Shown here: piece after piece, positions 48,096 through 58,506 of the stretch
Position numbering within the stretch: the first letter of the stretch is position 1
Layout of the letters: every line of letters starts with the position of its first letter
Source of the DNA: Candidatus Omnitrophota bacterium
GTDB taxonomy: Bacteria; Omnitrophota; Gorgyraeia; Gygaellales; Profunditerraquicolaceae
NCBI GenBank assembly: GCA_030650425.1
Contig: JAUSED010000005.1
Span: 270,932 to 334,931 of the forward strand
Length of the DNA stretch: 64,000 bases
Direction: 5' to 3'
The notes under the pieces: model-generated
Seen by the model: only the letters and a program-made list of their open reading frames with translations
Databases searched by the model: none
What the model was told of the DNA's origin: nothing
Made by a program: the position numbers and the translations under genes

Positions 48096-48182
48096 GGAGG
48101 AGTGTCGGAGTGGTCGATCGAGACTGCCTTGAAAGCAGTTGAGGCCGTAAGGCTTCCGAAGGTTCGAATCCTTCCTCCTCCG
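48096..48182 (+). tRNA. tRNA-Ser (anticodon UGA).
   Basis: Acceptor GGAGGAG/CTCCTCC. Anticodon stem ACTGC/GCAGT with loop CUUGAAA. Long variable arm. T-arm GAAGG-TTCGAAT-CCTTC. Confidence 0.8.
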
Positions 48183-48310
48183 ATAAATTTTTCGACAAGG
48201 AAAATTTATCGGATTCTGAACGAGCGTAACGCGGCGACAAGCCGCGTAGCGAGTGAAGAATCTTAACAGACAAGCCGAGCAGCGAGTACAGTATCTTATG
48301 CCGTGACAAG
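48181..48310. repeat. tRNA-Ser-associated repeat module. A GACAAGG-loop hairpin is followed by tandem roughly 33-nt units (GACAAGCCGNNNAGCGAGTNNAGNATCTTA).
   Basis: Hairpin CGATAAATTTT-TCGACAAGG-AAAATTTATCG. The units recur almost identically at 58048-58143 and 57828-57882. Confidence 0.75.
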
Positions 48311-48333
48311 TAAAATTTAACCTCCCAACCGCA

Positions 48334-48387
48334 GGGGACATTTTCCGTCAAAGCTATCAGGGAACTCTTTCAAGGAAAGTGTCCCCT
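48334..48387. repeat. GGGGACATTTTCCGTCAAAGCTATCAG…GGAAAGTGTCCCCT element (GGGGACA family).
   Basis: Seen directly. The 5' half is identical to the copy at 46053. Confidence 0.8.
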
Positions 48388-48582
48388 GGGACGAAGCTAA
48401 GCAACGCTTATAACGTGTCATTGCGAACCCCCGAAGGGGGTGAAGCAATCTCAATCGTATCCATAAATAAATTGGGCAACCCTCGCATCCGCAGTGATTG
48501 CCCTTAAGCTTACAATATGAATATACACTCTTTCCAGGGCTCGTCGAGAATTATTTTGGAGTAAAACCTAAAGTTACTCAAT

Positions 48583-49608
48583 ATGAAAGACAATTTCCAC
48601 AAACAGCTTTTTTTGATATCAGAGGAATTATTTAGAATTAAGCCTTGGGATACGGTAGATAATGAAAATATATTCGGCATCTGCCTGAAAAACAGCGATC
48701 TTCTTTACTTTATTTCAATTATGGGCAGCAGCGGTATGGAATATGGCGTAATTCTTATGCAGGACTGGAAGGGTTATCATGCTCTGGCAAATACCTCTAC
48801 TAGCGATATAGACCACGACACTATGGTAAACGCCAGCCATTTTCTTTCGCTAAGCTTATGCCGTAGAGATGAACTTCCCGGGGGTTTCGCCGCTTATAAT
48901 AAAAAATACGCCGTTAATTTCGGTAAGACAAAACCTTTTTATTGGATTGCCGCGAAAGAGCCCGGAAAGGTATTTCACCCGCCTAAAGATTCTGAAGCTG
49001 AAATTATCTATTTTTGCCTTAACGCTATCGTAGAGCTTACGCGAAAAAATATGTTTCAACCCGAGGGTTTTATTCGCGGCAATGAAATTAAAATATTTGA
49101 TGTAACTAGAGACAACGAAACGGTTAAAATCACCGGCCGTTATGAACGTATTAAAACTTTTGACGCGTCGGATTTAATATTTAAAGTTGGCGAAAAAACG
49201 CTAAGCCAGCTGAAACTTCTTCCGCGATTGCCAACCGTTTATACCATGGCCGCTCCTTCGGGCCTGATAGCTATCAGGCAGACTATGCCGCGGGTAGTAA
49301 TTATCCATGACGATCTTGCGGGAGTAATATTAGTAATGCAAGCTGTGTCTGAAAAGCGGGTTAAAGAAGAAGCGTTCCGGATATTAAAGGAAGTGTTCTT
49401 AGGAAAAAATTTCCTTAAAGTAAAAGGCCTGCCGCGGGAAATTCGCACTGACTCCAGGCTTCTTTATGATGTTTTTAAGCAAACATTGGCTTCGTTAGGC
49501 ATAAGAATGATCTGCGTGGAGTTTATTTCGAAAATTGAAGAGATTGTTAAGGGATTTCATCAGTTTCCGCCACGACCCGATGATAAAAGCAGGATTAGTA
49601 AACCGTGA
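48583..49608 (+). CDS. Hypothetical protein (island cargo).
   Basis: 341 aa. No recognisable motifs. First ORF of the tRNA-Ser island. Confidence 0.4.
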   Translation: MKDNFHKQLFLISEELFRIKPWDTVDNENIFGICLKNSDLLYFISIMGSSGMEYGVILMQDWKGYHALANTSTSDIDHDTMVNASHFLSLSLCRRDELPGGFAAYNKKYAVNFGKTKPFYWIAAKEPGKVFHPPKDSEAEIIYFCLNAIVELTRKNMFQPEGFIRGNEIKIFDVTRDNETVKITGRYERIKTFDASDLIFKVGEKTLSQLKLLPRLPTVYTMAAPSGLIAIRQTMPRVVIIHDDLAGVILVMQAVSEKRVKEEAFRILKEVFLGKNFLKVKGLPREIRTDSRLLYDVFKQTLASLGIRMICVEFISKIEEIVKGFHQFPPRPDDKSRISKP

Positions 49609-49631
49609 GAGACACATAAAAGGAGCCGGGT

Positions 49632-49835
49632 ATGGACGCTAAAAAGTTAGGTAAGAAGATTAAAATCGCTAGGATAGAACTTGATATGAACTAAACTGAT
49701 CTGGCAGATAAGATTAAAGCTAAACAGAAGAGTATTTCCCGCTACGAAACCGGCCTATCCATACCATCGATTGAAACATTAATTAAGATTTCCAAGGTTC
49801 TTAATAAACCAACCAGTTATTTTCTAGAAGATTAG
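49632..49835 (+). pseudogene. XRE-family HTH regulator interrupted by an in-frame TAA at codon 21.
   Basis: MDAKKLGKKIKIARIELDMN-(TAA)-TDLADKIKAKQKSISRYETGLSIPSIETLIKISKVLNKPTSYFLED. Strong RBS AAGGAG. The TAA at 49692 sits where Cro/C1-type HTH proteins have Gln (CAA). Confidence 0.55.
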
Positions 49836-49864
49836 AATTTCCTCCGTCATTGCGCTCGCCAGCG

Positions 49865-49940
49865 AAAATGGGGACAGAAAAAATGGGGACAGTCCCCAAA
49901 AAGCGGGGACAGTCCCCATTTTTTCTGTCCCCATTTTTTC
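49865..49940. repeat. 76-nt compound palindrome containing two GGGGACAGTCCCC sites.
   Basis: AAAATGGGGACAG-AAAAAA-TGGGGACAGTCCCC-AAAAAGC-GGGGACAGTCCCCA-TTTTTT-CTGTCCCCATTTT. Lies between the XRE pseudogene and the promoter of the giant gene. Confidence 0.85.
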
Positions 49941-49976
49941 TAAAGAAAGCGCTTTCCCAAAACCCCGGTTTTACCC

Positions 49977-57351: not shown

Positions 57352-57379
57352 AGGTAAAATTTTACTTAACTCATCATAC

Positions 57380-57786
57380 TGTATTTTCTTTAGTGTAAAT
57401 TTCAAAGGAATTATTTCTTAGTCTTACTTTATATATCCGCGACTTGGGAAGCCAGAATTTCCTGCCGTTATCTACCAGTATCGCCTTATCCGTTTCATGG
57501 ATAATCCTAACTGGTACCCAGGTGAATTTTTCTTTAGGGTGTGATATTACGGATACTAAATGGCCAGCTCATTTCTTATCTTCTTGTGAGTAGTTTTCTG
57601 AAATTTACAAGCCTTTATAACGGTTCCTTTAGCAATGTTTAAGCTCTTGGCTATGTCTTTGCAGGGTATGCCTAGTAAACGTAATTCTGTTATCTTTTTG
57701 GCTAATTTTTGGTATAATGGGGTTCGTTGTAAGGGTTGGATTATGATATTGGTGGTTATTTCGGATGCGGTTCGAATTGGTTGCAT
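57380..57786 (-). pseudogene. Decayed minus-strand gene fragments (an HTH segment, then a frameshifted …WVPVRIIHETDKAILVDNGRKFWLPKSRI… segment).
   Basis: Minus ORF 57556-57786 has an HTH-like LLGIPCKDIAKSLNIAKGTV. Beyond its stop the adjacent frame continues. There is no intact gene. Part of the similarity to 62838-63044 is explained by the + strand promoter-module duplication. Confidence 0.25.
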
Positions 57787-57795
57787 TCGGGTCCG
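57690..57795 (+). promoter_or_regulatory. Portable promoter-leader module, copy 1. Extended -10 TGGTATAAT at 57710-57718 and a T-loop-like hairpin at 57765-57787.
   Basis: About 85% identical to 62890-62993. Hairpin ATGCG-GUUCGAAUUGGU-UGCAU. Precedes tRNA-Ser(CGA) by about 215 nt. Confidence 0.45.
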
Positions 57796-57882
57796 TAAAT
57801 TTTTTCTGACAAAGAAAAAATTTACGGATTCTGAAGCGAGCGTGGTTTTGCGACAAGCAAAACAGCGAGCGGAAGAATCTTA
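57793..57882. repeat. tRNA-Ser-associated module, third copy. A 14-bp hairpin with a TGACAAA loop is followed by GGATTCTGAAGCGAGCG, a GACAAG-loop hairpin, and AGCGAGCGGAAGAATCTTA.
   Basis: Same architecture as 48181-48265. Confidence 0.7.
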
Positions 57883-57932
57883 GTAGTAAGGATTGCAGTT
57901 ATTTTTCCAGGATGGTATAGGGCAAAAATTCA

Positions 57933-58017
57933 GGAAGGATGGCTGAGTGGTCGAAAGCGATCGCCTCGAAAGCGATTAGGCAGCAATGTCTCGCAGGTTC
58001 GAATCCTGCTCCTTCCG
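57933..58017 (+). tRNA. tRNA-Ser (anticodon CGA).
   Basis: Acceptor GGAAGGA/TCCTTCC. Anticodon stem ATCGC/GCGAT with loop CUCGAAA. Long variable arm. T-arm GCAGG-TTCGAAT-CCTGC. Confidence 0.8.
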
Positions 58018-58143
58018 ATTGATTTTTCCGATAAGGAAAAATCAATCAGTACTGTACGAGCGTAGCGAGGCGACAAGCCGAGCAGCGAGTACAGTATCTT
58101 ATACAGCGACAAGCCGCGTAGCGAGTGAAGAATCTATACTGAT
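58017..58143. repeat. tRNA-Ser-associated repeat module. Hairpin GATTGATTTTTCC-GATAA-GGAAAAATCAATC plus two roughly 33-nt units.
   Basis: Units CGACAAGCCGAGCAGCGAGTACAGTATCTTATAC and GCGACAAGCCGCGTAGCGAGTGAAGAATCTATAC are near-identical to those at 48231-48300. Confidence 0.75.
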
Positions 58144-58159
58144 AAGATAAAACTCAGCA

Positions 58160-58468
58160 ATGAATAAAGGTATTTACAACCACCCTTGGTTCGTCTATAT
58201 TGCTGAATGTAAAGATAAAACTTTATATACTGGCGTAGCATTAGACGCCAAGAAGCGCATCAAAGTCCATAACACTACGAATAGGTGTCGTTATACTAGA
58301 TTTCGTAAGCCCTTAAAACTCGCGTATCAGGAAGCCTGCGCTAACCACCATTTAGCGCTAATACGCGAGCAAGAGGTTAAGAGTTTTAAAAAAGATAAGA
58401 AGTTAGAATTGATAGGAATTTGGAGAGGTCGCGTAGTGGTCGAGCGCGCGTGTCTGGAGAACACGTAA
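58160..58468 (+). CDS. GIY-YIG nuclease-domain protein (YhbQ/UPF0213-like).
   Basis: …WFVYIAECKDKTLYTGVALDAKKRIKVHN… GIY…YTG motif. The last 15 codons overlap tRNA-Ser(GGA). Confidence 0.6.
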   Translation: MNKGIYNHPWFVYIAECKDKTLYTGVALDAKKRIKVHNTTNRCRYTRFRKPLKLAYQEACANHHLALIREQEVKSFKKDKKLELIGIWRGRVVVERACLENT

Positions 58469-58506
58469 CCCGTAAGGGTTCGAGGGTTCAAATCCCTCCC
58501 TCTCCG
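58422..58506 (+). tRNA. tRNA-Ser (anticodon GGA).
   Basis: Acceptor GGAGAGG/CCTCTCC. Anticodon stem CGTGT/ACACG with loop CUGGAGA. Variable arm ACCC-GTAA-GGGT. T-arm GAGGG-TTCAAAT-CCCTC. Confidence 0.8.

Follow-up and report, generated by a model that had tools for sequence, protein, structure and literature searches.

The closest described counterparts of the locus analysed here are islands that are linked to tRNA genes and carry large serine recombinases. Two other known systems are relevant to its contents: polymorphic toxin systems, which have a conserved N-terminal trafficking region, a variable C-terminal toxin and a downstream immunity gene, and Rickettsia palindromic elements, which are selfish repeats lying in frame inside genes. 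In Omnitrophota, "Dockerin-type" giant proteins of tens of thousands of residues are reported, with HATPase_c, Radical_SAM, PPDK_N, NUDIX, GGDEF and HEAT among the domains listed in the preprint (bioRxiv 10.1101/2023.11.21.568195). Our subject is a 9.75-kb segment (positions 48183-57932, hereafter the island) of a 64-kb stretch of Candidatus Omnitrophota DNA (the window, i.e., the whole stretch analysed), situated between the first two of three tRNA-Ser genes close to serS and encoding, among others, a 1583-aa protein, a disrupted XRE regulator and a KilA-N protein (Table 1). With a probability of roughly 70%, it is a lineage-specific accessory insertion in a normally compact tRNA-Ser(UGA)-(CGA)-(GGA) cluster, most likely what is left, after remodelling and loss of the recombinase, of a large-serine-recombinase integrative element; this element would have entered at the 3' side of tRNA-Ser(UGA). 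Taken by itself, the island would thus be unremarkable, since degraded integrative elements at tRNA hotspots are an already-known type.

About 100 related loci of Omnitrophota were gathered by a seryl-tRNA synthetase (SerRS) scan of species-representative genomes and by a scan of metagenome contigs with the 234-aa membrane protein of the locus, a fast-evolving query; 163 loci were fetched in total and labelled by L-numbers, and the nearest comparators belong to different species (SerRS identity at most 89%). The order tRNA-Lys(ctt), archease, RtcB, SerRS, 234-aa membrane gene, tRNA-Ser(tga), (cga), (gga) is kept in nearly all loci of sufficient length, and in about 90 related loci tRNA-Ser(tga) lies directly 3' of the membrane gene. 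In L081 and L082, the closest relatives (87-88% identity to the window in the membrane protein and 87-89% in SerRS), the tRNA-Ser genes follow one another as tga-cga-gga, with gaps of 9 and 104 nt in the former and of 11 and 19 nt in the latter. Of 58 relatives with both tRNA genes, 17 have a tga-cga spacer of 6-21 nt, 10 one of 57-140 nt and 7 one of 317-552 nt; it measures 0.85-1.14 kb in another 14 loci, 1.8-2.1 kb in 7 and 3.3 kb in 2, and it reaches its maximum of 5.4 kb (5352 nt) in a single locus. The spacer of the window, with 9750 nt, is larger than all of these. None of the 58 carries any of the island's protein-coding genes in this spacer; the segment is therefore both adjacent to a tRNA gene and missing from the same site in relatives, as is characteristic of genomic islands. 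The sequence-only reading had extended the region from the UGA to the GGA gene with the CGA gene inside it; all three tRNA genes are present where it placed them, but the insertion ends at CGA. The same reading had proposed that a gene order conserved in the lineage would mark the region as core, and the segment can be called accessory because the island order is not conserved among the approximately 100 related loci.

The longer spacers of the relatives contain cargo unrelated to that of the window, almost all of it co-oriented with the tRNAs: LAGLIDADG-like open reading frames (ORFs), alpha-glucan phosphorylase, TPR proteins, a flavodoxin/ferredoxin protein, a 94-aa membrane protein, an AsmA-like protein and, in L006, a set consisting of a porin, PstS, a histidine kinase and a methyltransferase. 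At least eight unrelated gene sets are found in these tga-cga spacers. The tRNA-Ser cluster is a recurrent insertion hotspot in this Omnitrophota clade, and the triple cluster by serS can help accessory-gene mining in uncultured members of the phylum.

Six relatives have a large serine recombinase gene, encoded on the minus strand, immediately next to the 3' end of a tRNA-Ser gene. The tRNA gene concerned is tga in L132, which is the slot occupied by the island in the window; it is cga in L003 and L131 and gga in L100, L129 and L156. These intact elements at the same tRNAs bear out the earlier suggestion of an old or remodelled integration hotspot. Five of them (all except that of L100) also contain XRE homologues with 70-90% amino acid identity to the window's pseudogene, which is the sole island gene with homologues in the related loci, all within recombinase elements (L003, L129, L131, L132 and L156). 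The pseudogene shares 86% nucleotide identity with the intact gene of L003, where a CAA (Gln) codon stands in place of the window's TAA, in agreement with its initial description as a nonsense-disrupted regulator. A 52-nt hairpin element, composed of GTGTCATTGCGA, a variable stem-loop and GAAGCAATCTCA, is likewise common to the island and the recombinase-bearing elements; in L003 and L132 it is located between the recombinase and XRE genes, and the stem in the window differs from both of these versions yet stays complementary. The layout of L132 is tRNA, recombinase, hairpin, small ORF, XRE gene and cargo, while that of the window is tRNA, trailing module, palindromic repeat, hairpin, DUF7309 gene, XRE pseudogene and cargo, with 232 nt where a recombinase gene of 1.8 kb would sit. 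In L132, L131 and L003 the next tRNA gene of the cluster is absent within the following 8-10 kb of the locus, which is compatible with the 9.75 kb of the window.

From the XRE gene and the 52-nt hairpin shared with intact recombinase elements we infer the following history. An integrative element with a large serine recombinase would have entered at the 3' side of tRNA-Ser(UGA); the recombinase gene would have been deleted; the XRE regulator would subsequently have been lost via the nonsense mutation; and the genome's own palindromic repeats, which are spread over the window and occur inside the island too, would have colonised the segment. Such colonisation suggests that the island is old and no longer mobile. 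Like tRNA-linked islands with large serine recombinases, the segment is adjacent to a tRNA gene, missing from close relatives and loaded with accessory, partly phage- and defence-like cargo, and intact islands of that kind fill the same slots in the six relatives. Unlike them, it has neither a recombinase nor recognisable att repeats, its regulator is a pseudogene, its composition is indistinct, and it is enclosed by two tRNA genes of a compact isoacceptor cluster instead of adjoining a single isolated one.

Several observations weigh against this origin. As the sequence-only reading had stated of integrases, none was found in the 64-kb window by Pfam or by tblastn with the recombinases of L003, L100, L129 and L156, and tblastn detected no recombinase remnant either. 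Direct repeats of att type were looked for at the island ends and none was identified; the island is flanked by no repeats other than twin-hairpin copies A and B (Table 1), which are about 70% identical and belong to a general family trailing tRNAs. The nearest comparators, with 87-89% identity in SerRS, include no conspecific genome. The gene context was examined for two homologues of the 1583-aa gene, and both are surrounded by housekeeping genes; the ADP-ribosyltransferase (ART) module of the protein may be inactive owing to Q1419 at a position where most homologues have E. Finally, the composition of the island is only mildly deviant. Tetranucleotide distances, measured against the first 47 kb of the window, correspond to z values of 1-4 within the island and of 5-6 at 58-63 kb, with no step at the tRNA genes. 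The GC and tetranucleotide profiles that had been recommended as a check thus fail to mark the island edges, and composition was ruled out as a delimiter because the flank deviates more than the island; further outliers are at 41001-44000 (GC 0.39, z 3.2) and 33001-36000 (GC 0.48, z 3.4).

In many relatives the spacers hold ordinary-looking genes, so that the mechanism operating at the hotspot may differ from site-specific integration. Cassettes could be exchanged without any site-specific recombinase, through homologous recombination in the conserved serS and tRNA-Ser genes that flank the variable DNA, perhaps stimulated by free-standing homing endonucleases that cut close to the tRNAs. Such exchange agrees with the lack of att sites and of a recombinase in the searches of the window, with the many spacers in which a single gene of non-mobile appearance is found, always in the orientation of the tRNAs, and with the presence of GIY-YIG ORFs in the cga-gga spacer of the window and six relatives and of LAGLIDADG-like ORFs in spacers of 10 loci. 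However, these endonuclease genes are predicted only, and the XRE gene and the 52-nt hairpin are common to the island and the recombinase-bearing elements, in the same order. We consider cassette exchange rather unlikely, yet a real alternative or complement, as it is compatible with the recombinase-remnant mechanism.

Other explanations are much less probable. Since all comparators are different species (SerRS at most 89% identical), the direction of change is set by parsimony only, and an ancestral segment lost by deletion in relatives would fit that far; nevertheless, all 58 relatives with both tRNA genes are without the island's protein-coding genes, their spacers are filled with at least eight unrelated gene sets, those of the closest relatives measure 9-11 nt, and the distribution of the KilA-N gene is clearly horizontal, which makes ancestry very improbable. 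Equally hard to sustain is a prophage remnant: the KilA-N protein (phrog_2657) and the XRE regulator (phrog_8, among others) match phage regulator families, but these two are the only PHROGs matches within the island, no island protein matches a virion, terminase or replication family, and homologues of the KilA-N protein are encoded by solitary genes in non-phage contexts. The poorest candidate is a chimera created during assembly or binning by a join at repeated tRNA sequences. The source is indeed a metagenome-assembled genome, and the right flank (58.5-64 kb) is syntenic with no relative; on the other side, the three tRNAs are different isoacceptors in the order typical of the lineage, each followed by the trailing modules usual in the lineage, copies of one palindromic repeat family lie inside the island as well as to its left and right, and the GIY-YIG ORF is 76-79% identical to ORFs in the same slot of L090-L092. 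Of these readings, a hotspot with a degraded serine-recombinase element has the best support.

Table 1. Features of the tRNA-Ser cluster, the island and the palindromic repeats (positions in the window)
Feature	Position	Strand	Evidence and remarks
Palindrome copies	6757-6790, 12709-12760, 17703-17785, 25442-25470, 48334-48386, 49865-49941, 50316-50369, 50961-50997
tRNA-Ser(UGA) (tga)	48096-48182	+	ARAGORN, Rfam; left anchor of insertion
Twin-hairpin copy A	48178-48268	+	Covariance model 90.4 bits; fold z -4.6; partial tandem copy to 48310
Intergenic palindromic copy GGGGACAYTTTCC...GGAAARTGTCCCC	48334-48386	.	87% identical to copy inside giant-gene homologue in L163
52-nt hairpin element	48415-48468	+	79% identical to L003 13125-13176 and L132 12292-12345
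341-aa gene, DUF7309 + DUF6930	48583-49608	+	Pfam E=7.6e-17 and 2.8e-08
XRE (HTH_3) pseudogene	49632-49835	+	Pfam E=9.6e-16 with stop read as Q; in-frame TAA 49692-49694
Compound palindrome, ATGGGGACAG / GGGGACAGTCCCC units	49865-49941	.	33-nt arms, 97% complementary
Upstream leader of giant-protein family	49945-50051	+	Promoter-like TTGAAC-16-TATACT (promoter scan)
1583-aa ORF	50052-54803	+	No Pfam, NCBIfam or PDB sequence match
Giant protein aa 1-380, signal-peptide-like N-terminus and conserved N-domain	50052-51191	+
In-frame palindromic insertion, N-domain aa 78-111	50283-50385	+	Matches intergenic copy 48327-48400
Second in-frame palindromic insertion, aa 304-316	50955-51000	+	Peptide ...SPKGTVP...
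Linker repeat 1 (SPAQQQPASSA)	51478-51514	+	92% identical to 53260-53296
Middle module aa 621-1082, AT-rich	51912-53297	+	GC 0.357
Linker repeat 2	53260-53296	+	Repeat search
Module 3, aa 1085-1445, alpha/beta domain then modelled ART-fold domain	53304-54386	+
Conserved C-terminal domain, aa 1445-1583	54384-54803	+	GGIDFRxLP motif, then predicted helical region
Two tiny ORFs (44 aa; 58 aa)	54906-55040, 55050-55226	+	ORF calls
Terminator-like hairpin	55334-55368	+	15 bp then T-run
SIMPL (DUF541) gene	55487-56236	+	Pfam E=6.2e-28
KilA-N gene	56536-57351	+	Pfam; PADLOC PDC-S22 E=4.9e-132; phrog_2657 E=1e-60
Decayed small helix-turn-helix (HTH) gene copy	57556-57800	-	Weak HTH match 57556-57786; intact 164-aa homologue L111 11049-11543
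Twin-hairpin copy B, solo, unattached to tRNA	57791-57884	+	Covariance model 90.1 bits; fold z -6.4
tRNA-Ser(CGA) (cga)	57933-58017	+	ARAGORN, Rfam; right anchor of the 9.75-kb insertion
Twin-hairpin copy C	58013-58104	+	Covariance model 83.7 bits; partial copy to 58140
GIY-YIG nuclease ORF	58160-58468	+	Pfam E=1.3e-13; overlaps tRNA-Ser(gga)
tRNA-Ser(GGA) (gga)	58421-58507	+	ARAGORN, Rfam; third cluster member, main insertion not bounded by it

More valuable than the island itself are three by-products of its analysis: a family of "bookend" proteins with more than 800 members, palindromic repeats inserted in frame, and a covarying hairpin module at tRNA 3' ends. The first is represented by the 1583-aa ORF, which was found as initially described, including a start that, by inspection only, resembles a Sec signal peptide, with basic residues followed by 12 hydrophobic ones and then GFAQ. 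Among 8000 candidates scored, 830 homologues were found at E<=0.001; of those with a source name, nearly all are labelled Omnitrophota, and at least four family members are encoded in the window's own metagenome-assembled genome. The N-domain is common to all of the 119 homologues listed (46-75% identity), and the C-terminal domain, which gives weak matches to armadillo-repeat profiles (E ~0.005), stands at the extreme C-terminus of about 116 of them. The AlphaFold2 model of the N-domain is mediocre (core pLDDT ~70-87) and yielded no significant fold match. Between these ends the family members are unrelated, their interiors containing M48 peptidase, metallophosphoesterase, FHA, GNAT, methyltransferase, HATPase, Fic, HD, NUDIX, kinase, DnaJ, radical SAM, GGDEF and other domains. 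The giant protein is one paralogue of an Omnitrophota family in which constant N- and C-terminal domains surround interchangeable enzyme modules. No description of such a family was found in a literature search, nor in Pfam or NCBIfam. The leader of about 100 nt is 80-83% identical to regions just 5' of family genes in L161 (7930-7997), L162 and L163 (7346-7408), where the family genes have housekeeping neighbours. The genes downstream of the two homologues with examined contexts are unrelated; the family is chromosomal and multi-copy, and its copy in the window happens to be in an island.

The middle of the giant gene (aa 500-1060) had been singled out as AT-rich, and it is so, with GC of 0.357 and GC at third codon positions of 0.312 versus 0.436-0.459 in the flanking parts; its interpretation as a mosaic or horizontal feature of the island did not hold, as it reflects module swapping within the protein family. 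Homologues of the middle module are found in P0003, P0028 and about 50 other multi-domain proteins, and the near-identical linkers that bracket it would fit cassette exchange between paralogues. In module 3, whose homologues were obtained by exhaustive HMMER search, an ART fold is confidently modelled, with a core at aa 1255-1430 and with H1273, Y1300 and Q1419 as candidate counterparts of the catalytic residues of H-Y-E ADP-ribosyltransferases. H1273 and Y1300 are invariant in 25 homologues, while the third position is mostly E (equivalence judged from motifs, not superposition). The YHGT and GLY motifs of the module resemble the H and Y positions of diphtheria-toxin/PARP-type enzymes; unlike these, it has no sequence match in Pfam or PDB and carries Q1419 in place of E. 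Because the cargo modules include an ART fold, the giant protein may be a secreted effector or toxin.

Compared with polymorphic toxins, the family similarly combines a constant secretion-type N-terminus with an enzymatic payload that varies over hundreds of paralogues, and in the window member it includes a toxin-type ART fold, with small ORFs directly downstream. However, the variable part is internal and capped by a constant C-terminal domain of 135 aa, the payloads are mostly of housekeeping type (methyltransferases, GNAT, phosphoesterases, kinases, DnaJ), and no conserved immunity gene was found in the window or in the two homologue contexts. "Dockerin-type" giants share several Pfam families with members of the 1583-aa family, as far as domain lists can be compared; they are far longer, and term searches of the preprint found no mention of common N- and C-terminal end domains (bioRxiv 10.1101/2023.11.21.568195). 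A bolder and tentative proposal, which we think is probably not correct in full, is that hundreds of secreted bookend proteins constitute an Omnitrophota-wide delivery system, with the twin GACAA-loop hairpin described below as a new class of structured RNA. Its common parts would be the signal peptide and N-domain, the armadillo-like C-domain and the 5' leader; cassettes (ART, Fic, kinases, GNAT, methyltransferases, phosphoesterases) would be swapped at the Ser/Pro/Ala/Gln linkers and used on host or prey cells. In any case, a bookend family with an ART fold offers a concrete handle on how these nanobacteria, suspected to be host-dependent, might act on other cells.

The second by-product is a family of palindromes built on GGGGACA...TGTCCCC, of which the 64-kb window contains 8 inverted pairs versus 0.085 expected. 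The family sequences are GGGGACAYTTTCC...GGAAARTGTCCCC and GGGACWGTCCCC; three pairs are located within 1-47 kb, and a related GGGACTGTCCCC palindrome is at 6757. The compound palindrome upstream of the giant gene, which had been listed among the contents of the island, is present but belongs to this window-wide family and is included in the count. Its possible role as an operator of the XRE regulator was rejected as the main interpretation, since GGGGAC/GTCCCC units occur throughout the window and the XRE gene of L003 has no such palindrome. Two copies are inserted in frame into the N-domain of the giant protein, at sites without residues in 13 of the 19 aligned homologues and disordered in the model (pLDDT <50 for aa 78-111); the copy at aa 304-316 is 97% identical over 32 nt to L003 12188-12219. 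The in-frame copies yield the peptides GDTFRQ, KESVP and GTVP, and similar peptides are seen in paralogues P0002, P0014, P0024 and P0039. The palindromes match no Rfam family at the gathering threshold, and the in-frame repeats were not found in Pfam, NCBIfam or Rfam. Like Rickettsia palindromic elements, the repeats are both intergenic and in frame within an ORF, where they occupy loops that homologues lack; they differ in sequence family and phylum, the window shows two in-gene copies in addition to those in paralogues, and their mobility is putative.

The third by-product, the twin-hairpin module, starts 4-7 nt before the 3' end of a tRNA gene, mostly that of tRNA-Ser(cga). Both hairpins have GACAA loops, and the second contains a symmetric AGCGAGCG/AGCGAGCG internal region. 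A covariance model recovered 27 copies, spread over the window and 19 related loci and always in the orientation of the tRNAs; control loci totalling 1.06 Mb yielded no copy. The 27 copies include L081 1168-1260, L087 9542-9634, L090 12946-13036, L142 11685-11779, and L155 2086-2187 and 3126-3219. Copy C of the window corresponds in position to the modules of L081, L087, L090 and others. Complementarity is kept in 93.9% of cells; shuffles reach 69.5% and slid partners 47% at most, and 20 of the 25 pairs have changed on both sides. The module is not in Rfam by gathering or E-value thresholds, at which the tRNAs alone pass and other matches are far below threshold.

As to the remaining cargo, the sequence-only reading had called it phage- and defence-flavoured. 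The phage part stands with the matches of the KilA-N and XRE proteins to phage regulators, while the defence part depends on one candidate family, PDC-S22. The KilA-N gene, present as described, encodes a protein that matches the PDC-S22 profile over its full length (residues 2-267 of 271) and so falls within this family; PDC-S22 is a candidate defence family only, and in the window the gene is solitary, its defence role being predicted. Homologues 76-84% identical to it are found in Elusimicrobia, Firmicutes, Acidobacteriota, Bacteroidota, Deltaproteobacteria, Woesearchaeota, Nanoarchaeota and Altiarchaeales, whereas SerRS proteins of different phyla are 57-62% identical, and copies with 93-95% identity occupy unrelated gene contexts. 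This contrast in cross-phylum identity, together with the unrelated contexts, clearly points to a promiscuous gene, widely transferred horizontally. A zinc-ribbon-like mini-ORF 5' of the KilA-N gene (56320-56391) has 85% nucleotide identity to sequences upstream of tRNA-Lys in L110 and L118.

The 341-aa ORF exists but is not an orphan, given its DUF7309 and DUF6930 domains (Table 1), and it was found in none of the related loci. The two tiny ORFs, confirmed at their predicted places, have no family match in searches that included Pfam, PADLOC and PHROGs; the 44-aa product apparently has one hydrophobic membrane-spanning stretch. They are separated, together with the giant gene, from the SIMPL gene by a terminator-like hairpin. 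The SIMPL gene was correctly recognised but its "conserved leader" was not upheld, as blastn with the sequence 55227-55486 found nothing in the 163 fetched loci. PADLOC and PHROGs return nothing for the DUF7309 gene, and only a marginal PADLOC match to SspG (E=0.0044) for SIMPL; neither does the whole giant protein have a match in PADLOC, nor its ART module in PHROGs. The decayed HTH fragment predicted on the minus strand is present and belongs to no Pfam or NCBIfam family. A tRNA 3' remnant at 57769 (GGTTCGAAT) was considered as an attR scar and rejected: it is coding sequence of this decayed gene, which has a second copy at 62880-62995 and the intact homologue in L111.

The cga-gga spacer, with its GIY-YIG ORF, is a second, smaller variable slot, separate from the main insertion; the same slot holds a GIY-YIG ORF in L090-L092 (76-79% identity), L128, L129 and L143. 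Free-standing LAGLIDADG-like ORFs of ~290-350 aa (most 331-348) are observed in tRNA-Ser spacers of relatives, namely in the tga-cga spacer of L086, L096, L118, L123, L124, L131, L147, L153 and L160 and in the cga-gga spacer of L090, L091 and L123. The region 3' of the cluster (58533-62625, GC ~0.375) encodes a zeta-toxin/AAA_33-like kinase, a B12-radical-SAM enzyme and an HtrA protease, and it is compositionally the most deviant part of the window (z 5-6). Synteny of these genes was seen in no relative, and a zeta homologue (88% identity) and HtrA-like genes are located near the cluster in L125 and L121; variable DNA may extend past the third tRNA gene. The two decayed HTH copies, on the minus strand at 57640-57800 and 62880-62995, share 82% identity over 116 nt and enclose, as direct repeats, the segment that runs from tRNA-Ser(cga) to the HtrA gene.

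Upstream of the cluster, a 255-aa ORF (43308-44075) overlaps tRNA-Lys. The RtcB gene of the window (44589-46037) is uninterrupted. In five relatives the RtcB matches are interrupted by gaps of 1.1-1.5 kb (L007 7038-9986, L090 5772-8750, L100 5781-8747, L111 1947-6161 and L157 2732-5698), that of L111 being split twice; these gaps are probably inteins.

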